Source of the DNA: an uncultured Gammaproteobacteria bacterium
Lineage (GTDB): Bacteria > Pseudomonadota > Gammaproteobacteria > DRLM01
Direction: 5' to 3'
Length of the DNA stretch: 64,000 nucleotides
NCBI GenBank assembly: GCA_963729605.1
Contig: CAVSNY010000002.1
Coordinates: 256,001-320,000, forward strand
A program made the translations under genes and the position numbers. Position 1 is the first letter of the stretch. Each line of letters begins with the position of its first letter. The notes beneath the pieces were generated by a model. It saw only the letters and a list, made by a program, of their open reading frames with translations. It was not told the origin of the DNA and ran no database searches. Below, piece after piece: positions 1,179-30,778 of the stretch.

Positions 1179-1267
1179 GGTCGGCGCGCGAGCCTCGTTG
1201 GGTTTGCCGGTGATCCCGGTTTATACTGCGGCGGCATTGTAACGCGGGCGGACGCGGAGGGGTAATC

Positions 1268-15389: not shown

Positions 15390-15543
15390 GTTCAGTGTAA
15401 GACGATAGATCTCTACCGGATTTTTTTAGCGTTATTTTCATTGCGCTGATCCCGTTCTGATCAGCGCGATCCAGTTTTTCGCAATCCATCTCCCCCGACG
15501 ATCTGACATCGGCAAAAATTGAAATGCGGATGCGAGTCCTCGG

Positions 15544-15578
15544 AAAGGCGGTGCGTTGCTGGTCGCCAACGCACCGCC
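15544..15578 (-). terminator. Likely terminator hairpin downstream of CHRD gene
   Basis: GGCGGTGCGTTG-8nt-CAACGCACCGCC perfect 12-bp stem, short T run on minus strand. Confidence 0.55.
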
Positions 15579-15600
15579 GCGCCGTTTGGTTAAGTAAGGA

Positions 15601-16167
15601 TTAATGCAAAAACTTGAAAGGCGAACGATCTTCGATTTGGCCGCGGACTTCTCCCGGCGGGTTGGCGGTGGTATGAACGTTCACGTAGGTATTCCCGCGT
15701 ATCAGGTTGGCGATGGCATCTTCAAAAGTGTTGATGCCCAGATTCGGTTGCGGAATCAAATTTGCGGCAGTGATCATGCCGGAAATTTCCCCCGTGAAAG
15801 GGCCGTCGTCCCGCGGCAGCGGGGTGCCGGCCGGGTTGTTGCTGCTGTCCCCGAATAACCAAAACATCACCGGCCCATTTTGACCCGCGGGCCCGAGATG
15901 GATATGGGCCATGAAGATAGGGGTGGCGGTATTGCTGACTTTAAGCCGGTAATGGAGCGTGCTGCGATCCTTGGAAAGCGAGATATGGGCCTCGCCATAA
16001 GCCCCCGTGACCAGGCCCACCACGGGGATGACCGTGCCGGAGACATTGGTGTTGATGACTTCTTGGGCGCCGCTTAATTCCGTTTCAAACTTGTTGTTTC
16101 TGGCGTCGACGCTCATTGCGGACAGGCTGGCGAGGGTCGCGGCGGTGAGGGTAATGAATTTATTCAT
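15601..16167 (-). CDS. Secreted CHRD-domain protein
   Basis: Signal peptide, LSGAQE, AHIHLGPAGQNGPV, YVNVHT.ANPPGEVRGQI. Confidence 0.9.
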   Translation of the reverse strand: MNKFITLTAATLASLSAMSVDARNNKFETELSGAQEVINTNVSGTVIPVVGLVTGAYGEAHISLSKDRSTLHYRLKVSNTATPIFMAHIHLGPAGQNGPVMFWLFGDSSNNPAGTPLPRDDGPFTGEISGMITAANLIPQPNLGINTFEDAIANLIRGNTYVNVHTTANPPGEVRGQIEDRSPFKFLH

Positions 16168-16515
16168 ATTGCTTGTTCCTTCAAGATTCGGAGTGGATAA
16201 AGGGAACGCACGGGGACGGCGATGCCGTGGCGGTCCCGTCAGGAATCAACTTCATGAATTTAAAAATGATTGCAGGTACTGATGACGCTGGCGGGCGAGG
16301 GATGGCGTATTGAGCAACGCAGTACGGCGACCTCGCCTTTGAATAAAGGTAGCAGTCTTTTGTGAGGCTGCAAGCCGGGCCTTGTCTACTAATTTTAATG
16401 AATCAATTGTTTACATTTTTATGATGGTGAGCCCGGTCGCGCGTTTCCTGGCGGGGACAATTTGATACACTGAACCCCACAATCGAAAAGAAAAAGATAG
16501 TTGGGGGTAAGTTTT

Positions 16516-16878
16516 ATGAGCGGTTCAATACCGGAGTTTGATTTTGAGTTTTGGGTCAAGCTTGCCGCAACGGATTCGCAAGCCTTTGAAGAAAAACGGC
16601 GCGAAGTGATCGAGGACTTTATCACGCGATGGTCTCCCGACCAGCAGTCGCGCCTGCGCGGCTTGCAGTGGCGGATTGATATGGAACGCAAAAAACACCG
16701 TCATCCGCTGGCGGCGTGTTCGCATTTGTTCAATAAGATGTGGGCGTCGGTGTATGGCGAAGGCGGTTTATCCGACGCCTTGCAAGGCCGGGTGAAACAG
16801 TCCGAACAATCGGCTGTCGTATTGATCTTTTCACCGGATCGGCGCGAACGGGTTCGGGGTTTGGTGGCGGGTCCGTAG
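16516..16878 (+). CDS. DUF3135 family protein
   Basis: FDF..W..LA..D..AFE..R...I......RL.GLQWRID.ER....PL. Confidence 0.75.
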   Translation: MSGSIPEFDFEFWVKLAATDSQAFEEKRREVIEDFITRWSPDQQSRLRGLQWRIDMERKKHRHPLAACSHLFNKMWASVYGEGGLSDALQGRVKQSEQSAVVLIFSPDRRERVRGLVAGP

Positions 16879-16888
16879 CCGTCCGCCG

Positions 16889-17533
16889 TCACAGCCACTG
16901 TCCGGACCAGTGTTTGATCATGCCGCTCCATAAAACGTCAGGCGCGGTATTGAAAACCGCCTCGCCATCGGCGGGGGCGACGATCCAGTCCCCGCGCGCG
17001 ATTTCCCGCTCCAGTTGACCGGCAGCCCACCCGGCGTAACCGGCGTAGATGCGTACCGATGCATCCGTACGCAAGGCGGCAAGACTCGACCGCAGATTGG
17101 AAAGACCGCGGCCCAAAAAAATATTGGAGAATAAAATCTGCGCGGGCGGCGGGGTGTCGCTGCGAATCAATACGAACATTTCATTGGCGCCGACCGGGCC
17201 ACCCGCGTACAAGGGACCCGGATAGTGGCTCAGTTCCTCGATACCCGGCAGGACGTGAGCGATGCTGATGGGGGTAGGCCGGTTGATGATGAGACCCGCC
17301 GCGCCGGTCGCGCCGGTATCGATGATTAAAATAACCGTCTTGCGGAAACGCGGATCCGTCAGGCGCGGATGCGCGATGAGCAGCGTGCCTTTCTGCAAGG
17401 CGAACTGGAACATGTTGAGGGGCGGCGGTCTTATTTCGCCGGCCGCCTTATTGCAAACTAACAAGAACGCCGTGGCCAGGGCGCAAAAGATCGCGAGTCG
17501 GCTGTGACGTCTGTGTGGCGGCATGGTCTGCAT
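16889..17533 (-). CDS. YqgE/AlgH family protein with N-terminal hydrophobic extension
   Basis: LLIAHPRLTDPRFRKTVILI, GLIINRP, GGPV, GYAGWAAGQLEREI..GDW. Confidence 0.85.
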   Translation of the reverse strand: MQTMPPHRRHSRLAIFCALATAFLLVCNKAAGEIRPPPLNMFQFALQKGTLLIAHPRLTDPRFRKTVILIIDTGATGAAGLIINRPTPISIAHVLPGIEELSHYPGPLYAGGPVGANEMFVLIRSDTPPPAQILFSNIFLGRGLSNLRSSLAALRTDASVRIYAGYAGWAAGQLEREIARGDWIVAPADGEAVFNTAPDVLWSGMIKHWSGQWL

Positions 17534-17586
17534 TCCATTCTGCGCTCATTTCAACTATAGCAGCTGATGATGGATGGCGGGCATGA

Positions 17587-17624
17587 ATGAATTTGGCGCT
17601 GGGTATGGTCAGCGCGCGGCCGTT
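17587..17624 (+). repeat. 38-nt intergenic copy of HDOD coding sequence 14778-14815
   Basis: ATGAATTTGGCGCTGGGTATgGtCAGCGCGCGGCCGTT, 36/38 identical, same orientation. Confidence 0.9.
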
Positions 17625-17649
17625 TGGCGAGGAGGCACCCGCGCGTCGT

Positions 17650-18195
17650 TTATTCCGACGCCGCGAGCACTTTTTCCGTCATGCGCATGATGGAGCGGTC
17701 GCTGGTGAAGCGGCCGATGTCGTCCAAGGCCACCCACGCTAAGTCTCTCGATTCGCTGCTGATCACCAAGGGCGTGGCGCGATCCGCTTCCAGCAGCCAG
17801 CGCACGTCGTAGTGTAAATGCCGTGGTTCATCGCCGCGGGCCGGGATGGGATGCACGTCCACATCGAACGGCACGTTGGAGAGGGGTTTGATATCTTCCA
17901 GACCGGACTCTTCGCGGGCCTCGCGCAAGGCCACCGCCAGGATATCCGTTTCGCCGTCGGCATGACCGCCCAATTGCAGCCAGCGATTCAGTTTGCGGTG
18001 GTGGGTCAATAACACATGGCGGCGTTGGCGATCGATTATCCACGCCGAGCCGGTGATATGGCCGATGCGCAAGTGGCGTTCGAAACATTGGGTTTCGTTT
18101 TCCACGAAGCGGACCAGCATTTCATACATCTCCCGCTCGTTTTTATCGTAGGGCTGATACGCCTTCAGCAGCGCTAATAAAGGATGTCTATGCAT
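17650..18195 (-). CDS. NUDIX hydrolase
   Basis: GHITGSAWI, HHRKLNRWLQLGGHAD, Nudix box ALREAREESGL, HYDVR. Confidence 0.9.
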   Translation of the reverse strand: MHRHPLLALLKAYQPYDKNEREMYEMLVRFVENETQCFERHLRIGHITGSAWIIDRQRRHVLLTHHRKLNRWLQLGGHADGETDILAVALREAREESGLEDIKPLSNVPFDVDVHPIPARGDEPRHLHYDVRWLLEADRATPLVISSESRDLAWVALDDIGRFTSDRSIMRMTEKVLAASE

Positions 18196-18242
18196 GTCGT
18201 GCCATCGCGAATAACGTCGGGCGGTCATTATACCCAAATAAT

Positions 18243-18623
18243 TTAACGCGAGTGCCGGGTTTCCCGAGGCAGCGCGCGCAAATCCACCCATACCATGTGT
18301 TCCGCGATATGCGCCGGTAACGCGGTGAGGTGCTGGCGTACACAGGGACCCCGGATGCATAAACCGTCCTCGATGCGGAATTGCGCGCCGTGCAACGTGC
18401 AGAGTATGAGGCTGCGATCGAAGGTCAGAAATTCATCCGCCCCCCAATTGAGCGGAGAACCGGTATGCGGACAGCGATTGAGATAGACGTATACCCGTTG
18501 ATGCTGGCGCACCGCGAACAGGGAACGCATGTCGTCGTTAGGTAGAGGAAACTCCCGGCTTGTCCCATGCGCAAGTTCATCATCACGACATAGCGGGTGT
18601 AAATGTGGCGGCGTGGCGAACAT
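18243..18623 (-). CDS. Rieske [2Fe-2S] ferredoxin-like protein
   Basis: NRCPH...CTLHGAQF...G.C..GPC. Confidence 0.88.
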   Translation of the reverse strand: MFATPPHLHPLCRDDELAHGTSREFPLPNDDMRSLFAVRQHQRVYVYLNRCPHTGSPLNWGADEFLTFDRSLILCTLHGAQFRIEDGLCIRGPCVRQHLTALPAHIAEHMVWVDLRALPRETRHSR

Positions 18624-18873
18624 GATAGTTGCGGCTGGAAGTTTCCGTGAATAAAGTGCCGACGCACTTTAGCATAATGTCACGAGTCATGGTGCGGCCG
18701 AGTGGCTAGCCCTGTAAGCATTTGAATACCCATTGCGCTTTATATTCGTGGTGTCGCGCGGAGTTTCTTCGTTGGAACTTTTATGGCGCAGGTTTGTTTG
18801 ATAAATAAGGCCATGAAGAAGTTCGGGCCTGCTGTCGATACGTTGTATAAGGCCATTGTATGAATGATGCGGT

Positions 18874-19800
18874 ATGAAAGATCCGGCATTGATTGGCGTC
18901 GCGAGCGGCTGGGGCGCGCGGGATCGGGGTTGTGCGGACGGCCCCGATGCGCTATTGGCGGCGGGGCCGGTAATGTGTTTGGCGGGGAAGGGAGATTCTC
19001 CGCCGCCCCATGATATTTTACGCGCCGCGCCGCCGCCGACCGAACGGGATGTGATCGAGGTGGTGGTGGAGATCAATCAACGTTTGGCGCGTACGGTACG
19101 GCGGCGTATGGAAGAGGATTATTTTCCCATCGTCATCGGCGGCGATCATTCCTGCGCGGTGGGAACCTGGAGCGGTGTGCGTGGCGCGGTGGCCGAGCGC
19201 GGCGGCGTGGGCTTGTTGTGGGTGGATGCGCATATGGACAGTCATGTGCCGCAGACCAGTCCCAGCGGCGCGCTGCACGGGATGCCCCTGGCGTGTTTAT
19301 TGGGGCACGGCTTCGACGGACTGACTCACCTGGCCGGCCCGGCCCCCACGTTGCAACCCGCGCATGTGTGTCTGCTGGGTGTGCGCAGTTTTGAAGTCGG
19401 CGAGGCGGCGTTATTGAAAGCGCTGGGTGTGCGAGTGATTTTCATGGAAGAAGTCACGCGGCGCGGATTCGCGACGGTGTGGCGGGAAGCCTTGGCGCAG
19501 GTCTCACGCGCCAGCGCCGGTTATGGAATCACCCTTGATCTGGACGCGCTGGATCCGCGCGATGCGCCCGGTGTGGGGACGCCTGCCCCTGGCGGTATCG
19601 ATGCCGATGAATTGGTGCGCGCGCTGACCGATGCGCGGCAGGATCGAAACTGGTTGGCCTTGGAGATCGCGGAATACAACCCGCACCTTGATCACGATCA
19701 AACGACATTGCGTTTGCTGCGACGCATCGTGTGCGCGGCAGGTGGGAGAACAGTCGATGAATCCTACGATACACCTCGAACAACACTATTGCGCCCATAA
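18874..19800 (+). CDS. rocF: Arginase
   Basis: GGDHSCA, WVDAHMD, SG.LHGMP, DLDALDP..APGVGTP, EYNP. Confidence 0.9.
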   Translation: MKDPALIGVASGWGARDRGCADGPDALLAAGPVMCLAGKGDSPPPHDILRAAPPPTERDVIEVVVEINQRLARTVRRRMEEDYFPIVIGGDHSCAVGTWSGVRGAVAERGGVGLLWVDAHMDSHVPQTSPSGALHGMPLACLLGHGFDGLTHLAGPAPTLQPAHVCLLGVRSFEVGEAALLKALGVRVIFMEEVTRRGFATVWREALAQVSRASAGYGITLDLDALDPRDAPGVGTPAPGGIDADELVRALTDARQDRNWLALEIAEYNPHLDHDQTTLRLLRRIVCAAGGRTVDESYDTPRTTLLRP

Positions 19801-20965
19801 TTACGCGCCCTTGCCGGTGGTGCTGGTGCGGGGCGAGGGCGTGTATGTGTGGGACGACCAGGGCAAGCGCTACCTCGATATGATGAGCGCCTATTCGGCG
19901 GTGAGTCACGGACACTGTCATCCCCGCCTGGTGCGCGCGCTCAGTGAACAAGCGGCGCGGCTCGCGGTGGTGTCGCGGGCGTTTTATTCGGATCGGCTCG
20001 CGCCGTTTTTGCAGCGCCTTTGCGAAGTCACCGGTTACGACATGGCCCTGCCCATGAACAGCGGCGCCGAGGCGGTGGAGACCGCATTGAAGGCCGCGCG
20101 CAAATGGGCCTATACCGTGAAAGGCGTCGCGCCGGAGCGGGCGGAGGTCATCGCCTGCGACGGCAATTTTCACGGCCGCACCATCGCCGTGGTCGGCCTC
20201 TCTTCGGAGCCGCAATACCGCGAGGGTTTCGGGCCGTTTCCGCCCGGCATGAAACGCGTTGCCTACGGTGACGCGGCGGCTTTGGAAGCGGCGATCACGC
20301 CCGATACGGCGGCGTTTCTAGTGGAGCCCATTCAAGGTGAAGGCGGCATCGTGATTCCACCGGCGGGTTATCTCGCCGAGTGCGCCCGCATCTGCAAAAA
20401 ACATAATGTGCTGTTGATCTGCGACGAGATTCAAACCGGCGTGGCGCGTACCGGCGCTTTATTCGCGTGTTCGCACGACGGCGTAAAGCCCGATGGGGTG
20501 GTGCTCGGCAAGGCCTTGGGCGGTGGACTGTTGGCGGTGTCCGCCTTCCTCGCGCGGCGCGAGGTGATGGAGGTGTTTCAGCCCGGCGATCACGGCAGCA
20601 CCTTCGGCGGTAATCCGCTGGCGTCGGCGGTGGCCTTGGAAGCCGTCAATGTCATGTTGGAAGACCGGTATGCCGAGCGGGCCGCCGAGTTGGGCGATTA
20701 TTTTTTGGGGTGTTTGCGGCAAATAAACAGCCCTCTGATACGGGAGGCGCGCGGCAAAGGTTTGTTGATCGGTTTGGAAGTGGATCCTGCCAAAGTATCG
20801 GCACGGACCTTGTGTGAGGCTTTGATGCGGCGGGGCATACTCAGTAAGGAAACCCATCACACGGTCTTGCGTTTCGCGCCGCCGCTGGTGATTACCCGCC
20901 GGCAAATAGACGATGCCGTCGAGCGGATTCGAGAAGTTTTACAAACGTTCAGCCCTATTAACTAG
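19757..20965 (+). CDS. rocD: Ornithine--oxo-acid aminotransferase
   Basis: AHNYAPLPVV, SAYSAVSHGH, EPIQGEGG, DEIQTG, LGKALGGG, HGSTFGGNPLA. Confidence 0.95.
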   Translation: MNPTIHLEQHYCAHNYAPLPVVLVRGEGVYVWDDQGKRYLDMMSAYSAVSHGHCHPRLVRALSEQAARLAVVSRAFYSDRLAPFLQRLCEVTGYDMALPMNSGAEAVETALKAARKWAYTVKGVAPERAEVIACDGNFHGRTIAVVGLSSEPQYREGFGPFPPGMKRVAYGDAAALEAAITPDTAAFLVEPIQGEGGIVIPPAGYLAECARICKKHNVLLICDEIQTGVARTGALFACSHDGVKPDGVVLGKALGGGLLAVSAFLARREVMEVFQPGDHGSTFGGNPLASAVALEAVNVMLEDRYAERAAELGDYFLGCLRQINSPLIREARGKGLLIGLEVDPAKVSARTLCEALMRRGILSKETHHTVLRFAPPLVITRRQIDDAVERIREVLQTFSPIN

Positions 20966-21022
20966 CCCCTAAAAACGGGGTTGAATCGCTTTTAAATTCT
21001 CGTAATTTCATTACGCCGTGCA

Positions 21023-21040
21023 CTGGTACACCCTTTGCAT
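21023..21040 (+). promoter_or_regulatory. sigma54 promoter for PilZ gene
   Basis: CTGGTACACCCTTTGCAT (GG-N10-GC). Confidence 0.65.
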
Positions 21041-21127
21041 TCTTGCTCTCGCGTCAATAAATGCGCCGTCATTCTGGCGCTTGGGTTATAGTAACGGGAC
21101 TTGCCAGCAGCAAGGAGGAATAGAAGT

Positions 21128-21514
21128 ATGTTCACTGACAGTCGGTCAAACGCGCGATTACCCATTCCGAAATATTTCACCGGCGGCGCCTTTCATCTGG
21201 TCGACGGTGAGCGCGAGTATCACTATATCCGGGCCAATGACGTCTGCGTGTCGGGCATTGGCTTGGACGTGCCCTCGCCGCTGGAATGCGGATCGCAAGT
21301 GAAAGTGCGCTACACCACGGAAGGATGGCGGTCGGATCTGGATGGGACGGTGATGTGGTGCGTGCGCTCGGACCGGGTGGGTGTGAGCATGCGCGCCTAT
21401 CAGAATTTTCGAGTGGGTATCCGTCTCAATCCGAACAATGTCCAGGCCAATGCCCTGCTGTTTCTCACGCTGAAAGATGATTTGCAGCAGTCTCGCACGG
21501 AGGCGAGGGGTTGA
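21128..21514 (+). CDS. Standalone PilZ-domain protein
   Basis: AAGGAGG RBS; RSNAR (RxxxR), DVCVSGIGL (variant DxSxxG), G.VMWC, GIRL. Confidence 0.72.
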   Translation: MFTDSRSNARLPIPKYFTGGAFHLVDGEREYHYIRANDVCVSGIGLDVPSPLECGSQVKVRYTTEGWRSDLDGTVMWCVRSDRVGVSMRAYQNFRVGIRLNPNNVQANALLFLTLKDDLQQSRTEARG

Positions 21515-21644
21515 CGCCATTGTGCGTTGTGCCGCGCCCATAAGCGCGCTGCTATTTTAAAAAGGGGCGCGGCCATCGGGCCGCGCGATTCCTCCCCGCC
21601 TCGTTACGGCTGTTGTGTAAGCCGCCGTTTAATCCTCAAGCCGG

Positions 21645-21845
21645 TCAGCACCAATAATGATTATGAAGGACCGTGAATTGGCGAGGTGCCATGACCGCCA
21701 GCTTGATTTCATGTTCTTTTACCCGGCCGACGAAGATCTCGATGCTCTCGTGCGCGAATAGATGATAGGCGGGGAATTGGGGCGAGGTGGGTGTCTTTAA
21801 TTTGATCTCCACCGAGTGGCCTGGTCTGCAAGTGATGATGCGCAT
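21645..21845 (-). CDS. Divergent CsrA/RsmA-like protein with beta2-beta3 insertion (66 aa)
   Basis: AAGGA RBS; MRIITCRPGHSVEI...IEIFVGRVKEHEIKLAVMAPRQFTVL aligns by eye to CsrA MLILTRRVGE.I.I...V.V.VLGVKGNQVRIGV.AP..V.V. Confidence 0.6.
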   Translation of the reverse strand: MRIITCRPGHSVEIKLKTPTSPQFPAYHLFAHESIEIFVGRVKEHEIKLAVMAPRQFTVLHNHYWC

Positions 21846-21918
21846 GGGTATCCTTTCTTTGGGCGAAAGCGGATGCGAATACGGCGGCGGCTTAAAGCCG
21901 GTCTGCACGTTACGATCA

Positions 21919-21961
21919 ATTATAAGTATTACTAAATACATGTCAATATAGCAATACTTAT
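21919..21961 (-). promoter_or_regulatory. Consensus sigma70 promoter with two inverted operators
   Basis: Minus strand TTGACA(21946-41)-N16-TATAAT(21924-19); ATAAGTATTACTA (21922-34) and TAGCAATACTTAT (21949-61) are 12/13 inverted copies. Confidence 0.8.
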
Positions 21962-22019
21962 GTTGCAAGCCGCCGATCACTGCTAATAATCGAACCTTAT
22001 TTTTGCAGGTTCGAGTCGG

Positions 22020-22403
22020 ATGGAAATCGGGGAACGTATCAGATTGGCGCGTGAGGCGGTGGTGATGACCAAGTCCGAATTGGCAAGGCGGGTGGGGGTG
22101 CATCCCAGCGCTTGCATACAATGGGAGAGCGAGGGTGGCACCCATCCCAAAGTAGAGCATCTCGCCCAGGTGGCGATGGTACTGGACGTGCGTTTTGAAT
22201 GGCTGGCCACCGGCCGCGGCGAGATGCGTTACAGCCCCGCCGTACACGAGGAGCGTCCGGCTTACAGCGGGGTCGAGCCGCGTTTGAGTTCCGACGAGAA
22301 GCGCTTGCTGGACCTCTACCGCGGCCTCACTCGACGCAAACAGAAATCCTTGCTGGACGTGCTCGACGGCATGGCCACGGGAGGAGCGGACACTTCTTCC
22401 TGA
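22020..22403 (+). CDS. XRE-family (phage cI-like) HTH repressor lacking an S24 peptidase domain
   Basis: IGERIRLARE...ELARRVGVHPSACIQWE...P....L..VA..LDV.FEWLATGRG; LSSDE..LLDLYR.L. Confidence 0.9.
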   Translation: MEIGERIRLAREAVVMTKSELARRVGVHPSACIQWESEGGTHPKVEHLAQVAMVLDVRFEWLATGRGEMRYSPAVHEERPAYSGVEPRLSSDEKRLLDLYRGLTRRKQKSLLDVLDGMATGGADTSS

Positions 22404-22421
22404 AAAAATCGAGGTTACGCT

Positions 22422-22814
22422 TCATTCGCCGCGGCCGGTGAAACGGGTCATTTGCCGGCGCTGGCGTTTGGTCGGCCGTTCGCCGGGTTGCGGGCCCGCC
22501 ACCGCCAAGAGGCGATGTTGTTCGGCGAGCCGCCGCCGGTCCGCGATGCTCTCCGGTGTTTCCTCATATAAAAGCGCGGCCACGCCGGCGGGACCGCGAC
22601 TCCGTGAGAGGTCTTTGACCACCACGGTGAATTGATACGGCCCTTTGCGAATCTGCAATTCGTCGCCGGGGTGCACGGCGTAGGCGGGTTTGGCTCGGGC
22701 GCCGTTGACGTGGATTTTACCGCCGCCTATCGCCGTGGCCGCGAGGGCGCGGGTCTTGAAGAAGCGGGCCGCCCACAGCCATTTGTCGAGCCGCACTTTG
22801 CCGTCGTCTGTCAT
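22422..22814 (-). CDS. hslR: Ribosome-associated heat shock protein Hsp15
   Basis: RLDKWLWAARFFKTRALA, RGPA..A..LYEET, RPTKRQRR. Confidence 0.95.
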   Translation of the reverse strand: MTDDGKVRLDKWLWAARFFKTRALAATAIGGGKIHVNGARAKPAYAVHPGDELQIRKGPYQFTVVVKDLSRSRGPAGVAALLYEETPESIADRRRLAEQHRLLAVAGPQPGERPTKRQRRQMTRFTGRGE

Positions 22815-23217
22815 GCCGGATGTCGTCAATAACGTAACCATGATGGGTGTATCTCAAGATTGGGCGTTCGCCGCGACAACCCATATGACATGAATTGAAT
22901 TTTAATTGCTCCGCGTTGTCGGAGAACGCATGATTATGCGCCTGCCGCGGTTTTTAGTGGCGAGAAATAAAACTTATCCATGATGCGGAAAAGTCCCTGT
23001 TTTGTACATGGCCACTATCACGCCTATACTGATGCATAACCGCACAGGATAATGTTTGGGCGGCGTGGGATTTCCAGCAACGGGTCGATCGACCTAGCGG
23101 AGTCCCCTCTCAATCATGATCGGGTAAACGGCGTCTTGCCCGTCTCTCATTTCAAGTCATTCTTGCCGTCCACGGCGAAAAAATCGACCGACTTTTATAC
23201 ATTTGATGAGGCCACGG

Positions 23218-24417
23218 ATGTACGAAAAATTTTACGGATTGCAGGCGAAACCGTTTCGCCTCAGTCCGGAGCCCCGGTTCTTTTTCACCAGTGCCACTCA
23301 TAAAAGCGCGCTGGCGTATTTACGTTATGGTTTATATCAGGGCGAGGGTTTCATCGTGGTGACCGGAGGCGCGGGCACCGGGAAGACCACGCTGGTGCGT
23401 ACCTTGTCCGGCGAAGTGGCGGGCCGCCGGATGGCGGTCGGTGAATTGGTCAATACTCAATTGCAAGCCCACGATTTGCTGCGCGCTATCGCCGGCGCGT
23501 TCCAACTTTCCCAGCGCGGCACCAAGTCGGATTTGATCAACCGCCTATACGATTTTCTACTGGTGCGCGCTCAAAAAAATCAACGCGTCTTGCTGGTGGT
23601 GGACGAGGCGCACAATCTGCCGCCCGGCTCGTTTGAAGAGTTGCGCATGCTCTCCAATTTTCAACATGGCGAGCGTTCTTTGTTGCAATGCATCCTGCTC
23701 GGCCAGCCGCCGTTGCGGGACGCGCTGGCGCATTCCGCCTTGCAGCAGCGGGTGATCGCCACTCATCATCTCGAACCGCTGCTGCCCGAAGAGACCCGGG
23801 GCTATATTCTTCACCGCTTGCGTTATGTCGGTTGGCGCGGTGATCCCGTCTTCAGCGGCGAGGCGATCGGATTGATCCATCGTTGCAGCCACGGTATCCC
23901 GCGGCGGATTAACGCGTTGTGCGATCGGCTGCTGCTATTCGGTTGCCTGGAGGAGCGCCACGAGCTCGACGCCGCGGCGGTGGCGAAGGTGTACGCGGAA
24001 TGGGTGACCGAGGCGGGTCTGGAAGCGTGCGTGGCCGATGACGCCGCGAACGGCGTCGTGAATCTCGGCGCCTTGGCGCGGGAACAAGCGGCCATTCGAA
24101 TTTCTCCGCGCCCGGCGCCGCCGCACGAAATCATGACCGCATCGGCGCCGTCTTCAGCGACACCAATCCCGCATTCGGTTGCCGTGGCCGACCCGGGCTT
24201 GCCACCGACCCCGTTGCCAGCCGCGCCGCGCCGTTTGATCGCGGCCCAGTCTTTAGTGCGCCCCCTGATCAGCGTGACGGCGGTTGCAGTGGCGGCCCTG
24301 TTGGTTTGGATGTGGTCGCTGAATGGTGGTGTGCGCGATCAACAGGCGGTGCATACGCCGTCGTCGCCCGCTCCGGCGAGCGGGCCGGCGGCGACCATGA
24401 ACATCCCGTCGAGTTGA
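23218..24417 (+). CDS. ExeA/GspA-like AAA ATPase with Pro/Ala-rich linker and C-terminal TM
   Basis: MYEKFYGLQAKPFRLSPEP, GGAGTGKT, VDEAHNL, LRMLSN, GIPRRINALCDRLLL. Confidence 0.85.
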   Translation: MYEKFYGLQAKPFRLSPEPRFFFTSATHKSALAYLRYGLYQGEGFIVVTGGAGTGKTTLVRTLSGEVAGRRMAVGELVNTQLQAHDLLRAIAGAFQLSQRGTKSDLINRLYDFLLVRAQKNQRVLLVVDEAHNLPPGSFEELRMLSNFQHGERSLLQCILLGQPPLRDALAHSALQQRVIATHHLEPLLPEETRGYILHRLRYVGWRGDPVFSGEAIGLIHRCSHGIPRRINALCDRLLLFGCLEERHELDAAAVAKVYAEWVTEAGLEACVADDAANGVVNLGALAREQAAIRISPRPAPPHEIMTASAPSSATPIPHSVAVADPGLPPTPLPAAPRRLIAAQSLVRPLISVTAVAVAALLVWMWSLNGGVRDQQAVHTPSSPAPASGPAATMNIPSS

Positions 24418-24544
24418 ACCACGTCTACAGCGAATCATTCTCCGTTGCCGTTATTGTGGTTGCGATCACGCCGCGCTTGCGGGGGATGATTTGCGGCGGT
24501 GGTGTATCCAACGGACTCGGTCCGCGGCGATGGGCGCGCTGCGC

Positions 24545-24573
24545 TTGACAGTGCCCATGCCCGCGGGCAGACT
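24545..24573 (+). promoter_or_regulatory. sigma70 promoter of leader-EamA unit
   Basis: TTGACA-N17-CAGACT. Confidence 0.65.
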
Positions 24574-24581
24574 TTCGAACC

Positions 24582-24683
24582 ATGTGTTTACATTCTCAAT
24601 CGGCCGTCGTCGTAATCGCACCTCGCCTGGCCCGGGCGCGAGTGTGGTGTGCGTTTATGTGGCCGGGGGATGTCTATTGTTAG
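24582..24683 (+). CDS. Putative attenuator leader peptide (33 aa)
   Basis: MCLHSQSAVVVIAPRLARARVWCAFMWPGDVYC*; starts 8 nt after the -10 and contains a sequence able to pair with the terminator. Confidence 0.55.
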   Translation: MCLHSQSAVVVIAPRLARARVWCAFMWPGDVYC

Positions 24684-24716
24684 TTTCGTAATACAGTCAG
24701 CGCAGCGCGCAATCCC

Positions 24717-24754
24717 AAGGCCACAGAATCCGCGTTCTGTGGCCTTTTTGTTTT
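24717..24754 (+). terminator. Intrinsic terminator (attenuator) upstream of EamA gene
   Basis: AAGGCCACAGAA-TCCGCG-TTCTGTGGCCTT followed by TTTGTTTT, 27 nt before the start codon. Confidence 0.85.
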
Positions 24755-24781
24755 GGGCGCCGCCATGATCGGGAGGTCAGC

Positions 24782-25666
24782 GTGTCCGTGCCCGCCGCTT
24801 ATCTGGGTATTATCCTTATCTGGTCCACGACGCCGTTGGCGATCAAGTGGAGCGGAGAGGATGTCGGTTTTTTATTCGGCGTCACCGGCCGCATGTTGCT
24901 CGGCGCCGTGTTGTGTCTCGCCTTGATCCGATTGTTGCGGGTCGAGTTGCCCTGGCACCGTACCGCGATACACACCTATCTCGCCGCGGGCATCGGTATC
25001 TACGGCTCCATGCTCTGCGTGTATTGGGGCGCGCAATATATTCCTTCCGGTTTGATCGCGGTGTTGTTCGGATTGACCCCGCTGATGACCGGCGTGCTGG
25101 CGATGGCGTGGCTGGACGAGCGCAGTTTCACGCCCGGCAAACTCGCGGGGATCGCGGCGGGTTTGGCCGGGCTGGCGGTGATCTTCGGCAGCGGTGGTCA
25201 ACATGGACCGCTGGCGGTGCAAGGGATCAGTGCGGTGTTGGTGGCGGTGCTGCTGCATTCGATCAGCAGTGTGCGGGTCAAACAGATCGGCGCCGAGGTG
25301 CCGGCCTTGGCGGTGGCCGCCGGCGGCCTCCTGGTGGCGGTGCCGCTGTATCTCGTCACCTGGTGGCTGGCGGACGGGGTCATGCCGCGGCTGTTGCCGG
25401 CGCGGGCCGTGTTGTCGATTGTTTATCTCGGCGTGGTGGGATCGGCGATCGGTTTCGTCTTGTATTACTACGTGCTCAAGCGCCTCACCGCGGGGCGGGT
25501 GGCCTTGATCACCTTGGTGACGCCGGTCACCGCCTTGCTGCTCGGCAATGTCCTCAATGACGAGCGGCCCGGTCTCGAGGTGTGGGCGGGCACGGCGGTG
25601 ATTTTACTGGGGCTGGTTTTGTATCAGCGCGAAGCGAAGATGCACGCCGACAAGCCGGCGGCGTGA
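24782..25666 (+). CDS. DMT/EamA family transporter
   Basis: About 10 TM segments, LIWSTTPLAIK, YLGVVGSAIGF..YY, LVTPV.ALLLG..L..E. Confidence 0.92.
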   Translation: MSVPAAYLGIILIWSTTPLAIKWSGEDVGFLFGVTGRMLLGAVLCLALIRLLRVELPWHRTAIHTYLAAGIGIYGSMLCVYWGAQYIPSGLIAVLFGLTPLMTGVLAMAWLDERSFTPGKLAGIAAGLAGLAVIFGSGGQHGPLAVQGISAVLVAVLLHSISSVRVKQIGAEVPALAVAAGGLLVAVPLYLVTWWLADGVMPRLLPARAVLSIVYLGVVGSAIGFVLYYYVLKRLTAGRVALITLVTPVTALLLGNVLNDERPGLEVWAGTAVILLGLVLYQREAKMHADKPAA

Positions 25667-25781
25667 GCACGCAGCGGCCCGGTGTCGCGCGTCACTTGCG
25701 CAGGGCGCGCGCCGTCTCGTTGTAAGCGGAGGGACAATAACTTTATACTCCGGGCACCTTTTTTATTCCGGAGCGCGCGCC

Positions 25782-26987
25782 TTGGTTAATCCTATTCCGA
25801 AACCGACCATCCAATCTTTCAATCCCGCCGTGCGTACCTTGATGGGTCCGGGTCCTTCGGATGTGCATCCACGCATACTGGCGGCCATGGCGCGGCCCAC
25901 CATCGGCCATCTCGATCCGCTGTTCGTCGATATGATGGATGAGATGAAGCTGTTATTGCAGTACGCCTTTCAAACCCGCAACGCCCTCACCATTCCCGTT
26001 TCGGCGCCGGGTTCGGCGGGCATGGAGACCTGCTTCGTCAATCTGCTGGAGCCGGGCGACAAAGTGGTGGTCTGCCAGAACGGCGTGTTCGGCGGCCGCA
26101 TGAAAGAGAATGTCGAGCGCTGCGGCGCGCTGCCCATCATGGTGGAAGATGCTTGGGGCGAACCGGTCGATCCCGAAAAATTGGAGGACGCCCTCAAGGC
26201 CCATCCCGGCGTCAAGGTCGTGGCCTTCGTCCATGCCGAGACCTCCACCGGCGCGCGGTCGGATGTGCAACAACTGGCGGAAATCGCCCGCCGTTACGAC
26301 TGCCTCACCATCGTCGATGCGGTGACCTCGCTGGGCGGCATTCCGCTCAAGGTCGATGAGTGGCAAGTGGACGCGATTTATTCCGGCACGCAGAAATGTT
26401 TGTCTTGCACGCCGGGCCTGTCGCCGGTGAGTTTCAGCGAGCGGGCGGTGGCGCGCATCAAGGCGCGCAAAACCAAAGTGCAGAGCTGGTTTTTGGATTT
26501 GAATCTGGTGATGGGGTATTGGGGCGCCAGCACCAAACGCGCCTATCACCACACCGCGCCGATCAACGCCTTGTACGGTTTACACGAGGCCTTGGTGATG
26601 TTGCAGGAAGAGGGTTTGGAGGCGGCGTGGGCGCGCCATCATCGGCATCATCTCGCGCTGCGCGCCGGGGTGGAGGCCTTGGGTCTGCGCTTCGTGGTGA
26701 AAGAAGATTATCGCCTGCCGCAGCTCAATGCGGTCACCGTGCCGGACGGGGTGGACGAGGCGGAGGTCCGCCGCCGCTTGTTGACGGAGTTCAATCTGGA
26801 GATCGGCGCGGGGCTGGGCAGCCTCGCCGGCAAGGTATGGCGCATCGGTTTGATGGGCCATGCCAGCACGCCGAAGAACGTGCTGTTCTGTTTGGCGGCG
26901 CTGGAAAAGGTATTGAGTGATCTTCAGGCGCCGATTCTCCGCGGCAAGGCGCTGGGCGCGGCGGGGGCGGCGCTGGCCGGGGGGTGA
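25782..26987 (+). CDS. Alanine-glyoxylate/serine-pyruvate aminotransferase (class V PLP)
   Basis: LMGPGPS, HAETSTG, VDAVTSLGG, SGTQKCL, YHHTAP, WRIGLMG. Confidence 0.93.
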   Translation: MVNPIPKPTIQSFNPAVRTLMGPGPSDVHPRILAAMARPTIGHLDPLFVDMMDEMKLLLQYAFQTRNALTIPVSAPGSAGMETCFVNLLEPGDKVVVCQNGVFGGRMKENVERCGALPIMVEDAWGEPVDPEKLEDALKAHPGVKVVAFVHAETSTGARSDVQQLAEIARRYDCLTIVDAVTSLGGIPLKVDEWQVDAIYSGTQKCLSCTPGLSPVSFSERAVARIKARKTKVQSWFLDLNLVMGYWGASTKRAYHHTAPINALYGLHEALVMLQEEGLEAAWARHHRHHLALRAGVEALGLRFVVKEDYRLPQLNAVTVPDGVDEAEVRRRLLTEFNLEIGAGLGSLAGKVWRIGLMGHASTPKNVLFCLAALEKVLSDLQAPILRGKALGAAGAALAGG

Positions 26988-27138
26988 CGCGGAGGGTCAC
27001 AAGTTGACTGAAAGGGCCGGTTTCCGGCGGGCGGCGATGAGAACGTGTCGGCGAATTGGGGCGGACTTGGTTAACAGTTTAAATCGGGGGTTTTCCCTCA
27101 CAAGGTTAACCTTTTGAATATCTGGCCAATAATTATTG

Positions 27139-27155
27139 TTGGCACATAGGCTGCA
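27139..27155 (+). promoter_or_regulatory. sigma54 promoter
   Basis: TTGGCACATAGGCTGCA (GG-N10-GC) with AT-rich upstream tract. Confidence 0.75.
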
Positions 27156-27227
27156 ATAGTCGGGGCAGAAAACATGAACGATGCCGCCGCCGGGGCGCGG
27201 CCGTAAACAGCTTCGAGGATACAGCCA

Positions 27228-27569
27228 ATGAGCCAGACGATGACCTACGACGACCTCTCCCAATTGGCGGGGACTTTCCGCGACACCGGTGGTGTGAGCG
27301 AGGAAAACCGGAGTCTGGGTTTCCGCCCCGCCTTTCTCGATCGCGACAGCGGCCGCTTTCTCATGGCGCGGGATGCCGAGGGCGCGCCGGCGGCGGTGCA
27401 CCAGTTCGATGGTCTGCCCGATGACTGGGTGGTGAGACGCGATCAGACCGGCCGGCCGCTGGCGGTGAAGACCTCGGTGGTGGCCGGTTTCGTCCGCGGC
27501 GGCTGTTTCTACACCCGGGAACAGGCGGCGCAGCTGGTACAGTGGGAGTTGGATAAACGCGCCAGCTGA
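27228..27569 (+). CDS. Conserved hypothetical protein
   Basis: GAGGA RBS; TGGVSEENR..GFRPAFLD...DGLP.DW...GFVR...FYTREQAA looks like a conserved uncharacterised family. Confidence 0.7.
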   Translation: MSQTMTYDDLSQLAGTFRDTGGVSEENRSLGFRPAFLDRDSGRFLMARDAEGAPAAVHQFDGLPDDWVVRRDQTGRPLAVKTSVVAGFVRGGCFYTREQAAQLVQWELDKRAS

Positions 27570-27594
27570 ACCGCGGCGCGGAATGCATGGAATA

Positions 27595-27978
27595 TCAGTG
27601 CAGTATTCGCGGCACCGATAAGGTAAAGACCGGGATGTCCGCGTCGAAATGGTTGCCGTCGTCGCCCAGCATCTGATACGTGCCGCGCATCGTGCCCACC
27701 GCCGTATCCAGCACCGCCCCGCTGGTATATTGAAAGGCCTCGCCCGGCCGCAGATAGGGCTGTTCCCCCACCACGCCTTGACCGCGCACCTCCTGCGTCT
27801 TGCCGTTGGCGTCGGTGATGATCCAATGCCGCGAGAGCAGTTTGGCGGGAACCCGTCCCAGATTCTGGATGCTGACCGTATAGGCGAAGACGAAACGATT
27901 CTGCTCGGGAACCGACTGTTCCTCGACGTAGAACGGCTCAACCAAGACTTTGATGCTATAAGAAGAATCGCTGTTCAT
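27595..27978 (-). CDS. apaG: ApaG protein
   Basis: FAYTVSI, LLSRHWIITDANG, GVVGEQP, YTSGAVL.T.VG.M.G.Y. Confidence 0.95.
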   Translation of the reverse strand: MNSDSSYSIKVLVEPFYVEEQSVPEQNRFVFAYTVSIQNLGRVPAKLLSRHWIITDANGKTQEVRGQGVVGEQPYLRPGEAFQYTSGAVLDTAVGTMRGTYQMLGDDGNHFDADIPVFTLSVPRILH

Positions 27979-28091
27979 GTTGACGGCTACCACCTTCAAT
28001 TTGCGCTTTTTTATGGAGGGAGAAGGATATTAGGTGCGCAACTTTAGAGAAAGTTTAGCACAGGCCTTGTAGGCTGTCCCGGCGGGGTGGT

Positions 28092-30386
28092 TTATTTGGC
28101 GGCGACCTTGCGCACTTGGGCGAGATCGGTTTGGCCTTTGAACATCTTGGTGATGCCGTCCTGCATCAACGTCCGCATGCCTTCTTTCATGGACAGGGCC
28201 TGCAATTCCTCGGCCGTGCCCTTGTGATAAATGAGTTCCTTGATGCCGCGGCTGGACACCAGTAACTCGTGGATGCCGGTGCGGCCCCGATATCCGGTGC
28301 CGTCACAGGCCGGACAACCCGGCGCTTTATAGAGGGTGGCCTTGCCGGGGTCGGGGCAGACCTCGGCGAAATGCTCTTCGCCGTAATAGCGGCGGATCAG
28401 GGTCAGTTCGTCGGCGTCGGGTTGATAGGGCTTTTTGCATTTCTCGCACAAGGTGCGCACCAGCCGCTGCGCCATCACCCCCAGAAACGCGTCGGAAAAA
28501 CTGATGGGGTCGATGCCGAGGTCGAGCAGACGGGTGATGGTCTCCGCCGAGGAGTTGGTGTGCAGGGTGGAGAACACCAAATGGCCGGTGAGCGAGGCCT
28601 CGACGCCGGCCTCGGCGGTTTCCTGGTCGCGCATCTCGCCGATCATGATGACGTCCGGATCGGCGCGCAGAAAGGAACGCAGCGCCGTGGCGAAGGTGAG
28701 CCCCGCCTTCTTGTTCATCTGCACCTGCTGCAAGCCGGGCTGGGTGATTTCCACCGGGTCTTCCGCGGTCCAGATCTTGCGCTCGGGGGTGTTGATGTGG
28801 GCGAGAATGGCGTGCAGGGTGGTGGTCTTGCCCGAACCGGTCGGACCCACCACCAGAAAAATGCCGTGAGGATGTTCCACCAGGGCCTTGGTCTCGCGCA
28901 GCGTGCGCTCGGCGAAGTTGAGCTGCTCGAGCGGCGGCGGTTTGTTCGAAGCCAAGATACGCATCACCACCGATTCGCCGTTGACGGTGGGGATGGTGGC
29001 GACGCGCAGCTCGATGGGTTTGCCTTTGATCTTCACCACGCACTTGCCGTCTTGCGGACGGCGGCGGTCCGAGATGTCCATGCCGGCGGTGATTTTGATG
29101 CGCGAGACCACGGCGCGAATATGGCTGGCCGGTATGGTAAGGCTGCGCTGGCATTGGCCGTCGATGCGGATGCGCACCGAGGACGGCACTTTGCCCTTGC
29201 CGGGTTCGATGTGGATGTCGGAGGCGCGCGCGTTGTAGGATTCACGGATCAACTGATTCACCAGCTGGATGACGGTGGCCTCGTTTTCATCGACCGCGTC
29301 CACTTCCTCGTCGGAGATGCCCTCGACGCCTTCTTCGTTGAGGCGGTCCACCAGTTCGTTGATATCGACCTTGCCGTCGATATTGAGCGGGGTTTCGCCG
29401 AGAAATTGCCGGATGTCTTCGGGCAGCGAGACTTTGAAAATGTAATTGCGGGCGCGCAACACCCGTTGAATTTCCATGAGGCGGCGGTCGTCGGTGGGAT
29501 CGTCGATCAACACCACCACTTCATTGCGGTCGCCTTGAATGGGCACCCAGCATTCTTTTTTGAGATAGGCCTCGTTGATGCCCTTCAGCAGCTCCTTGGG
29601 TATTTCCACTTCCGGGTCGTAGCCCATGTACGGCACTTGGTAGTAGCGTTCCAGCGAGGCGCCGATTTCCGCGGCGCTGAGATTGGCCTCGGTGAGCAGT
29701 AAATGGGTGACCGAGGTGCCTTCCTTGGGCGCGCGCTGTTTGAATTCGTCGAGGCGTTGTTGAGTGAGTTTGTCCGACTGCACCAGATATTCGTAGGGAT
29801 CGCGGGTGCCGCCCAATTCATAACGAAACTGGTTGCCGAGGAAGAAGCCCAATTTGATGGTGTTGCGCAGCTCCGCGTCGGAAAATGCCCCGCCGCCGCG
29901 GCGATTGAGCACTTGGATCACCCCGAACAAGACGTCCTTGGATTTGATGGGCACCACGATCATGGATTGGGTGCGAAAGCCGCTCTTGAGATCGTAGGAC
30001 TTGTCAAACCGCAAATTCGGGTGAATATTGGTCAGTTCCTCGGCGTTGTAGACGTCGGTGATGCGTACCGGTTTTTGATTGAGTCCCACATACCCGGCGA
30101 TGGACGAAGTGGAGAGCGCGACCCGGATTTCCTTGATCTCGCTGCCGCTCTTGTATTTGGAGACCAAGGCCGGCTCGGTGCGCGAGCGCTGGTAGACGGT
30201 GATGCGTTCGGCGTTGAGCAGGGAGAGTAAATCCTCCTCGATTTCCGGCATGACGTCGCGGAAATTGGCGGATTCCTGGATGCGTTGAATGACCGCGTTG
30301 AGCCGAACCTGAAACTCGAGCTGGCGCTTGAGTTGATCCGGATTCAGTTTTCTCTGCGCCTCGTTGCTTCCGTCAGTCATGCTCAT
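28092..30386 (-). CDS. GspE/PilB-family secretion ATPase with N-terminal GAF domain
   Basis: GAF (SIAGYV...D.Y...FD..YD.KSGFRTQSMI.VP), ASDIHIEP, PQDG, GPTGSGKTT, EDPVE, LRADPD..MIGEMRD, TGHLVFSTLHTN, CxxC pairs. Confidence 0.92.
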   Translation of the reverse strand: MSMTDGSNEAQRKLNPDQLKRQLEFQVRLNAVIQRIQESANFRDVMPEIEEDLLSLLNAERITVYQRSRTEPALVSKYKSGSEIKEIRVALSTSSIAGYVGLNQKPVRITDVYNAEELTNIHPNLRFDKSYDLKSGFRTQSMIVVPIKSKDVLFGVIQVLNRRGGGAFSDAELRNTIKLGFFLGNQFRYELGGTRDPYEYLVQSDKLTQQRLDEFKQRAPKEGTSVTHLLLTEANLSAAEIGASLERYYQVPYMGYDPEVEIPKELLKGINEAYLKKECWVPIQGDRNEVVVLIDDPTDDRRLMEIQRVLRARNYIFKVSLPEDIRQFLGETPLNIDGKVDINELVDRLNEEGVEGISDEEVDAVDENEATVIQLVNQLIRESYNARASDIHIEPGKGKVPSSVRIRIDGQCQRSLTIPASHIRAVVSRIKITAGMDISDRRRPQDGKCVVKIKGKPIELRVATIPTVNGESVVMRILASNKPPPLEQLNFAERTLRETKALVEHPHGIFLVVGPTGSGKTTTLHAILAHINTPERKIWTAEDPVEITQPGLQQVQMNKKAGLTFATALRSFLRADPDVIMIGEMRDQETAEAGVEASLTGHLVFSTLHTNSSAETITRLLDLGIDPISFSDAFLGVMAQRLVRTLCEKCKKPYQPDADELTLIRRYYGEEHFAEVCPDPGKATLYKAPGCPACDGTGYRGRTGIHELLVSSRGIKELIYHKGTAEELQALSMKEGMRTLMQDGITKMFKGQTDLAQVRKVAAK

Positions 30387-30778
30387 CGTTAGCCGTGTCC
30401 ATATCGAATGCGAACGCCGGAGCGAGAGGCGTCCGCCGGCGGGATGTCCCTGTTCACGGCAAAGCGCCGGCACTCTCGAGCGAGGCAGGCTAGGGTTTCG
30501 AAGCATGTCCCCGCACCCCACGGAGGAACGGGGCATCCGTCATTACTCCCACGCTGGGTATCGACTGGGCGGGGGAATGCTTGAACCCGGGTTGGACCGC
30601 CCGTCCCGCGGACACTCGGAGGGTCCTCGTGGTCGGCAAGGCGGGCGGAGTAGGGTTTTGGTTCGATTAACCTGTTGAAGCGTCATAAGAACTTTGCAAG
30701 ACTGGCGATGCCGGGTTGGATCGCTTTCGGCGGGACGGGCATCCCGTTTTTCCGCGAGTTGGATGAAGTAAGGCGAAT

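Follow-up and report, generated by a model that had tools for sequence, protein, structure and literature searches.

The window analysed here, a stretch of 64,000 nucleotides from an uncultured gammaproteobacterium, carries between a PilZ gene and an Hsp15 gene two small genes that point away from each other, one for a CsrA-like protein of 66 amino acids (ORF66) and the other for a repressor of the XRE family (Table 1). An unannotated reading frame of this size, with a ribosome-binding site and divergent from an XRE repressor, had been described in a first-pass annotation made from the sequence alone, and both the coordinates and the AAGGA site agree with those obtained here. The perfect TTGACA-N16-TATAAT promoter that the annotation placed ahead of ORF66 was also recovered, as the single match to TTGACA-N16-18-TATAAT in the whole window, none of 100 shuffles having produced any. 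The two promoters stand back to back, with 17 bp between their -35 hexamers, and that of ORF66 is overlaid by an inverted repeat with two 16-nt arms, 88% complementary and 8 nt apart. A repeat with at least 14 matches out of 16 appeared twice when the intergenic region was dinucleotide-shuffled 1000 times, and once in 1000 shuffles of the AT-rich core alone. The two 13-bp inverted operators previously seen at the -35 hexamer, one of them in the promoter spacer, were placed correctly, but they form one two-armed palindrome rather than two separate operators.

Table 1. Features of the ORF66-XRE locus and of its surroundings (positions of the window)
Feature	Position	Strand	Remarks
ORF66	21645..21845	-	66 aa, stop codon included in the positions; RsmN/RsmF-type CsrA-family protein, Cys6/His61 clade
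Shine-Dalgarno AAGGA	21851..21855	-	5 nt ahead of the ORF66 ATG; AGGA kept in 5/6 orthologous loci
Terminator-like hairpin	21567..21586	-	8 G-C pairs, then a T-run; ~60 nt beyond the ORF66 stop
Predicted sigma-70 promoter of ORF66, TTGACA-N16-TATAAT	21919..21946	-	score 12/12
Inverted-repeat arm 1	21922..21937		within spacer and -10 of the ORF66 promoter; presumed operator half
Inverted-repeat arm 2, core TAGCAATACT	21946..21961		between both -35 hexamers; upstream of the ORF66 -35, beside the XRE -35
Predicted XRE promoter, TTGCAA-N16-AATAAT	21963..21990	+	score 9/12
XRE-family repressor	22020..22403	+	127 aa; DicA/RstR-like; N-terminal helix-turn-helix and conserved C-terminal helical tail
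GGA motifs at xre start	22016..22034		three motifs
XRE-Hsp15 junction	22401..22424		convergent genes, stop codons 18 bp apart
PilZ protein	21128..21514	+	single-domain; ATG at 21128, Shine-Dalgarno AGGAGGA
Terminator-like PilZ-ORF66 region	21533..21600		
ExeA/MshM-like AAA ATPase	23203..24417	+	
T2SSE-type ATPase	28095..30536	-	with GAF and MshEN domains

ORF66 is a genuine gene. The frame is conserved, a point on which the first-pass annotation had let its reading depend, and the ratio of nonsynonymous to synonymous substitution rates (dN/dS, Nei-Gojobori) is 0.059-0.124 in all six ortholog pairs, with 0.13-0.17 in three pairs for XRE. The protein was found in 8 of the 41 genomes searched (the source genome included), among them all three other genomes of the genus and, at 47-48% identity, members of two further genera of the family. 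These data rule out a chance reading frame. The base composition of ORF66 (GC 0.52, and 0.64 at third codon positions, compared with ~0.61 and ~0.72 in its neighbours) deviates too weakly to call a foreign origin, and that of XRE is typical. PilZ, Hsp15 and, in one run, part of XRE are covered by contigs from four metatranscriptome runs (X15-X18), and ORF66 by none, contigs of this kind being unable to show absence. An Rfam scan of positions 15000-30000 gave no RNA-family match at E<=0.1.

The identity of ORF66 only emerges fully from its family. Taken alone, the protein matches the Pfam CsrA family (PF02599) at E 0.0016 over residues 33-60, and its single-sequence search of the PDB returned nothing better than chance UvrC rows (E >=0.55), so a profile search of the PDB was needed. 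A profile of the ORF66 clade retrieved 337 representatives (clusters at 50% identity) at E<=1e-3 among 1.84 billion proteins. A Pfam scan took in 75 of the best 150 representatives: 67 passed the CsrA cut-off, 2 fell below it and 6 had no CsrA match, one of these being an unrelated Ig-repeat protein. The Pfam matches typically span residues 1 to ~66 of the protein and 1 to ~49 of the Pfam profile, which gives the family an insertion of ~17 residues. A profile of 63 stand-alone members matched, over its full length, the PDB entries of RsmF (4k59, 8.2e-16) and RsmN (4kji, 1e-15) of Pseudomonas aeruginosa, whereas canonical CsrAs were matched over the C-terminal half only (positions 34-67, 3.5e-12 to 1.5e-9).

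Structure prediction points in the same direction. The AlphaFold2 model of ORF66 (predicted local distance difference test, pLDDT, 90.4; predicted template-modelling score 0.70) has the element order E-E-H-E-E-E, with a helix between the strands E11-16 and E36-43 that takes up only residues 26-30 of a proline-rich insertion. The four top Foldseek matches of this model were RsmN/RsmF chains (4kji, 4k59, 4krw; template-modelling scores 0.68-0.71, probability 1.00), all others having E>1. In a VIA-align comparison of the predicted monomer with 48,161 chains, 4kji_A alone reached Z>=5 (Z 7.6, root-mean-square deviation 2.8, 63 of 64 residues aligned; the runner-up had Z 3.5). Alignment with the single canonical CsrA of the source genome (contig C7 of G000, 93 bits), in which ORF66 is the sole insertion-type copy, sets the insertion at 18 residues, and the chain stops 5 residues past strand 5, leaving out the C-terminal helix. 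The CsrA strand pattern with an insertion of ~18 residues was thus read correctly in the first-pass annotation, as were the change of TRR to TCR and the loss of both the HREE arginine (the alignment gives LHNH) and the C-terminal helix. Its proposed comparison with CsrA structures bears out a CsrA-family fold, but one of the RsmN/RsmF type rather than the canonical one. On this modelling, ORF66 is an RsmN/RsmF-fold member of the CsrA family, with an internal helix between strands 2 and 3 and without the C-terminal helix, and by analogy it would be dimeric.

The fold of ORF66 is not a new departure from CsrA, since the insertion and the loss of the C-terminal helix together correspond to the RsmN/RsmF rearrangement, already described in 2013 for P. 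aeruginosa in the parts of Morris 2013 (PMC3791407) that are drawn on here. According to that source, an insert of ~16 residues folds as a helix in RsmN, and the dimer consists of two docked, folded monomers, whereas RsmA and canonical CsrA are domain-swapped. ORF66 shares with the RsmN/RsmF structures (4KJI, 4KRW, 4K59) the succession of two strands, an inserted helix and three strands, and it has a comparable length (66 residues vs ~71), but it is only 18-22% identical to them. With canonical CsrA, RsmA and RsmE it shares homologous strands 1-2 and 3-5, and differs from them in the 18-residue insertion, the absence of the C-terminal helix, the loss of a key arginine and, by the RsmN precedent, a probable lack of domain swapping. 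Canonical CsrA is controlled by sponge RNAs, whereas ORF66 is predicted to be under a dedicated transcriptional repressor.

Other variations of the same architecture were noticed among the relatives. P0055 (154 aa) and P0064 (202 aa) show two matched stretches each, apparently two tandem insertion-type CsrA domains per chain, and a CsrA that is canonical in its residues and possesses the C-terminal helix (locus L031, G312:C8, 1423-1719, minus strand) has a different, longer acidic insertion of ~25 residues at the strand 2-3 junction. This junction seems to tolerate insertions repeatedly in the CsrA fold.

What sets ORF66 apart is its putative RNA-binding face. In RsmN, as described in the same parts of PMC3791407, the basic RNA-binding surface consists of Arg9, Arg49, Arg56 and Arg62; the R62A change lowers RNA affinity more than 1000-fold; Leu4 and Leu6 pack against the two guanines; a conserved intrasubunit salt bridge joins Arg8 and Glu64; the helix ends in a Gly-Ile motif, and the strand-5 contacts with RNA are mostly made through the backbone. 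The equivalent residues of ORF66 (Table 2) were obtained through alignments with the CsrA of the genome and of the family profile with the PDB.

Table 2. Residues of RsmN and their equivalents in ORF66
RsmN	ORF66
Leu4	Arg2
Leu6	Ile4
Arg8	Cys6
Arg9	Arg7
Arg49	Lys48
Arg56	Arg55
Arg62	His61
Glu64	His63
Gly-Ile	Ser34-Ile35

Three of the four basic-surface residues are retained (R7, K48 and R55). Among 147 aligned family members, position 6 is Arg in 129 and Cys in 14, and position 61 is Arg in 125, His in 8 and a gap in 12. Within the clade of eight ORF66 sequences, whose identity goes down to 42%, C6, K48 and H61 are invariant; position 63 varies (H, R, Q, K), and of the Gly-Ile position the Ile is invariant, with S, N, T, G or P at the site of the Gly. 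Since these three residues are invariant in the clade while the arginines have been replaced, the RsmN-type face of ORF66 is still under constraint, with a changed chemistry. In a tree of the family (146 rows, 63 columns), where most forks are unresolved and a single clade of 14 rows was used, 12 of the 14 Cys6-type sequences fall in that clade, with a support of 88 in the Shimodaira-Hasegawa-like approximate likelihood ratio test. The clade spans the lineages of ORF66 and of P0099/L029, and the latter, deeper members have Cys at position 6, yet retain the equivalent of Arg62.

The other gene of the pair encodes a repressor of a familiar kind. XRE matches HTH_3 (6.7e-10) and Phage_CI_repr (7.7e-5) in Pfam; its best NCBIfam match, under the cut-off, is DicA (9.2e-13, residues 3-114 to 6-110 of 135), followed by RstR (4.8e-8), and in PHROGs it matches phrog_2328, a transcriptional repressor (2.5e-15). 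The six orthologues share a conserved C-terminal motif and an invariant VHPSACIQWE at residues 27-36, which from its place within the helix-turn-helix (HTH) is taken to be the recognition helix.

Across the orthologous loci, the intergenic region is conserved in its core but not in the leader. Both hexamers of the XRE promoter are kept in 6/6 loci and the -10 block of the ORF66 promoter in 5/6. Arm 2 of the palindrome (TAGCAATACT) is near-invariant, with one base changed in each of two loci, and constitutes the best-conserved intergenic block outside the promoters. Arm 1 varies and shows moderate conservation at these loci. With up to one mismatch, TAGCAATACTTAT occurs in the 3.48-Mb genome at the two arms only, so XRE looks like a local regulator; a genome-wide scan for words resembling the operator gave no further site carrying the full arm. 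Outside the window, contig C7 of the same genome (244162-244187) holds a perfect inverted repeat, AAGTATTACTT-N4-AAGTAATACT, which resembles the operator arms of the cassette. Downstream of it come a small gene and then one for a PIN-domain (VapC-like) protein, and from this position it is presumably the operator of that pair, unrelated to the cassette.

The two genes behave as a unit. In all six loci of the family the gene order is PilZ-ORF66-XRE-Hsp15. Five genomes of the family lack a detected ORF66, and XRE was likewise not found in four of them, the fifth having a 34% match only. In those four, which belong to a sister genus, the PilZ and Hsp15 genes meet tail to tail with 72-241 bp between them, and the same ornithine aminotransferase gene flanks them. 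ORF66 and XRE are gained or lost cleanly as a unit of ~0.9 kb, the genomes being kin, so that this amounts to a few events and not to a statistic. The compact two-gene module of the first-pass annotation is borne out by this synteny and joint absence.

A search for further pairs of XRE and CsrA-like genes, which the annotation had put forward as a check, gave a mixed outcome: a second GTDB family also has the pairing, but most loci lack it. In a sample of the class (400 scored genomes), full-length insertion-type matches were found in ~20 genomes, the other matches being canonical CsrA. Of 22 insertion-type loci, five have an HTH gene within 1.5 kb: three belong to the ORF66 family and the remaining two are L029 and L018. 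L029, from the other GTDB family, has a Cys6-type gene with a divergent XRE and a predicted promoter scoring 10/12, no repeat being reported. L018 (genome G029) encodes a CsrA(insertion)-HTH fusion of 150 aa (1240-1692, minus strand) facing a divergent XRE of 77 aa (1783-2016, plus strand), with a 12-nt palindrome across the predicted -10 of the fusion gene. A profile scan of genome contigs gave four loci, all of the ORF66 lineage, and a scan of metagenomes gave two, one of the L029 lineage (its PilZ 99% identical) and another too short to show the neighbouring gene.

Fusions like that of L018 are frequent in the family. With an HTH profile made for this analysis they account for 21 of 154 family proteins; by Pfam, an HTH family is present in 14 of the 75 scanned representatives, and all 14 pass the CsrA cut-off too. 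The fusion proteins are 146-182 aa long, with the HTH at the C-terminus (for instance P0009, P0010, P0014 and P0020), and one of them carries the Joint Genome Institute name 'sRNA-binding carbon storage regulator CsrA/DNA-binding Xre family transcriptional ...'. They are the top-scoring matches of the ORF66-clade profile beyond the clade itself. These proteins combine in one chain the same two domain families as the cassette, and that of L018 also faces a divergent small XRE, but the equivalents of Arg8, Arg62 and Glu64 (R6, R61 and E63) are kept in 19/19 aligned fusions, in contrast to the Cys, His and His of ORF66. A fusion profile run over a sample of 401 genomes of the phylum gave matches to the HTH part only and no fusion. 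The joint presence and absence of ORF66 and XRE, together with the single-chain fusions elsewhere, show that the two proteins are functionally coupled.

Taken together, these observations suggest, somewhat better than evenly in our judgement, that ORF66 and the divergent XRE gene form a two-gene regulatory cassette, gated by XRE and having ORF66 as a post-transcriptional output with altered specificity. As judged from the geometry, the conservation and the type of repressor, the DicA-like XRE would bind the 40-bp palindrome over the consensus promoter of ORF66 and keep this gene off, and it may also tune its own promoter from the arm beside its own -35. Once repression is lifted, a burst of ORF66 would follow. 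ORF66 would then be the output, most likely a post-transcriptional regulator with a specificity unlike the canonical A(N)GGA, and it might possibly touch the XRE protein as well. We infer the binding of XRE to the palindrome, the repression and any feedback. That ORF66 binds RNA with a changed specificity is put forward more tentatively, at somewhat less than even chances from its sequence; RNA binding is favoured because ORF66 keeps three of the four residues of the basic surface, the strand-5 contacts of RsmN are mostly of the backbone in the cited parts of PMC3791407, and the deeper members of the clade and all the fusions keep Arg62.

Several results weigh against this reading. ORF66 remains under the CsrA cut-offs of both Pfam (18.8 vs 27 bits) and NCBIfam (18 vs 73 bits). 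Its equivalent of Arg62 is His, the Arg8-Glu64 salt bridge has become Cys6/His63, and Leu4 has become Arg2; since R62A cuts the RNA affinity of RsmN so strongly (the data again from the cited parts of PMC3791407), the replacement of Arg62 may mean that canonical GGA binding is lost. The nearest relatives preserve arm 1 of the palindrome poorly, ~5-8 of 9 core positions still pairing with arm 2. The AlphaFold2 model of XRE is too poor for use (pLDDT 46). Moreover, the pairing is not family-wide but concentrated in the Cys6 clade and among the fusions; 17 of the 22 insertion-type loci sampled from the class, all with Arg at position 6, lack an HTH gene within 1.5 kb.

Among the alternatives, the one that survives best, although we regard it as rather unlikely, is that ORF66 acts mainly on the XRE protein, as a small anti-repressor or co-repressor that would sit on the C-terminal tail of XRE and feed back on the switch, with the Cys/His face as a protein-contact or sensing surface. 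SinI, the partner of SinR, offers a comparison for such a small partner of a repressor. The domain fusions predict a functional or physical link of this kind, and the residues through which RsmN binds RNA have been replaced in ORF66 by others that are invariant in its clade. Some weak support comes from the predicted complex of two ORF66 chains with XRE, which scored 0.42 where the best of three controls scored 0.01, with a contact agreement of at least 84% between runs and a partner pLDDT of at least 74. Of 157 solved complexes, 116 attained the mark applied to these predictions, as did 2 of 215 mismatched pairs; with scores of 0.60 or less, only 18 of the 157 attained it, together with both passing mismatches, and according to the prediction tool such a pass is wrong in most cases if the pairing was not already likely. 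On the other hand, complex prediction gave no interface, and XRE alone is poorly predicted. The conservation of R6, R61 and E63 in all the aligned fusions suggests that these proteins bind RNA and do not serve for protein contact alone, and the deeper Cys6 members (P0099, L029) keep the Arg62 equivalent as well.

A further extension of the cassette reading, which seems improbable, is that the Cys6-clade pair works as a mixed transcriptional and post-transcriptional toggle, a bistable switch of the cI/Cro type in which an RNA-binding fold takes the role of Cro. The insertion-type (RsmN-fold) branch of CsrA would on this reading be large and essentially unstudied, with a sizeable share wired to XRE domains, either fused or divergent. 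In such a switch XRE would shut the ORF66 promoter and ORF66 would shut XRE, either through the GGA motifs at the start of xre or through the XRE protein, and through the invariant Cys6/His61 face, which stands in place of two arginines, the switch would become sensitive to redox state or to a metal. Part of the GGA sequence is imposed by the Met-Glu codons, and only the three closest loci retain the double GGATGGA; the motifs are a lead and not evidence.

Very unlikely is a toxin-antitoxin-like or defence module in which ORF66 would be a growth-arresting RNA binder silenced by XRE. A consensus promoter beneath a dedicated repressor and the presence or absence of the two genes together would fit such a module, XRE proteins are often antitoxins, and there is a weak NCBIfam match of XRE to the spr1629 repressor/antitoxin (9.7e-5); but the genes are divergent, without co-transcription, ORF66 has no PADLOC match, the context is neither mobile nor of defence, and the pair is held at one chromosomal site across genera. 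The model of the first-pass annotation, a CsrA mimic that would inactivate host CsrA in mixed dimers, is the least probable: the genome does encode one canonical CsrA, which over the strands common to both has 33% identity with ORF66, but the ORF66 model and its family match RsmN instead, and a mixed dimer appears topologically implausible because the strands that a swapped partner would supply should already be satisfied inside each ORF66 chain, if ORF66 docks as folded monomers as RsmN does in the cited parts of PMC3791407.

The layout of the cassette recalls the lambda cI/Cro and Qin-prophage DicA/DicC switches, in which a repressor gene and a small gene diverge. As in these switches, a cI/DicA-type HTH repressor is divergent from a small gene in a cro-like position, the promoters are back to back, and a palindrome, here the predicted operator, extends over the small-gene promoter and beside the -35 of the repressor gene. 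Unlike Cro, a DNA-binding repressor, ORF66 has a predicted RNA-binding fold and no HTH; there is one palindrome instead of three tandem operators, and the cassette occupies a fixed chromosomal site among housekeeping genes, with no prophage genes nearby.

The literature treats CsrA-family regulators as global RNA-binding proteins, in the parts of PMC3791407 and of PMC7366521 that are cited here. In the same parts of PMC3791407, rsmN lies in the intergenic region PA5183-PA5184, in antisense direction, and no divergent XRE partner is described for it, in contrast to ORF66. ORF66 further differs from RsmN in its Cys6, His61, His63, Arg2 and Ser-Ile, which stand for Arg8, Arg62, Glu64, Leu4 and Gly-Ile. 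The review of Sobrero and Valverde 2020 (PMC7366521), in the parts cited, treats RsmN inside Pseudomonas only, and the literature search found no paper on RsmN-type proteins outside this genus, although the supplementary tables of PMC7366521 and Figure 7 of Morris 2013 could list more. No paper on CsrA-XRE pairs or fusions was found either, in line with the first-pass annotation, which knew of no description of the pairing. What appears to be new, as these comparisons suggest, is a CsrA paralogue of the RsmN fold with a remodelled binding face beside a dedicated DicA-like repressor, in a large and unstudied XRE-linked branch.

The locus and its relatives suggest that the RsmN fold is widespread, with 337 clusters, that in one branch an invariant Cys/His pair has taken the place of the RNA-binding arginines, and that the insertion-type family has been coupled repeatedly to XRE repressors, down to fusions predicted to retain both DNA- and RNA-binding sites. 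With two genes in ~0.9 kb, the cassette offers a small testable system for the combination of transcriptional and post-transcriptional repression, and it lets one ask what the RsmN fold does without Arg62.

Regarding the origin of the cassette, 19 proteins encoded around it, from 9 to 36 kb, were compared with protein families. Of these, 14 belong to housekeeping families, the other five having no family at E<=1e-5, and none matched phage or mobile-element families, which agrees with the earlier remark that no other phage genes are close by. ORF66 gave no tblastn match in 50,697 phage records. The fusion P0009 matched phages and plasmids through its HTH part alone, its CsrA-like part having no match in the same phage records or in 72,556 plasmid records; its one longer plasmid match is an ordinary XRE regulator beside rhtA on a P. 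aeruginosa plasmid. PHROGs returned nothing for ORF66, and its relatives match phrog_9500, 'CsrA-like regulator'. A phage or plasmid origin was rejected on the absence of such matches for the CsrA-like part and on the housekeeping neighbours. The term phage-like, used in the first-pass annotation, remains apt for the type of repressor and the geometry, but not for the chromosomal setting, which is that of housekeeping genes and gave no phage matches. In PADLOC, likewise, neither ORF66 nor PilZ had a match and those of XRE were all to generic HTH entries, and a defence system was discarded on these grounds.

Some observations concern the neighbouring genes. No terminator-like site was found in the 18-bp gap between the stop codons of XRE and Hsp15. 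On the other side of the cassette, RNA-library contigs of four runs cover PilZ at a depth of up to 74, a coverage that alone is no proof of transcription, and contigs of three runs over this gene break off at 21538, 21554 and 21600, positions that fall within the terminator-like stretch separating PilZ from ORF66. The PilZ protein, whose RxxxR motif is RSNAR and whose second motif is DVCVSG, adjoins the cassette in 6/6 loci of the family, and its gene stays in place where the cassette is absent. A PilZ homologue (24% identity, E ~1e-11) is also found beside the Cys6-gene/XRE pair of the other GTDB family, on the opposite side, the homologues being located at 2117-2491 of L029 and at 4757-5131 of L056, both on the minus strand. 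Near the cassette and PilZ there are also an ExeA/MshM-like AAA ATPase and a T2SSE-type ATPase with an MshEN domain, which we take to be a module binding cyclic di-GMP; these genes hint at a cyclic di-GMP and pilus neighbourhood around the cassette.

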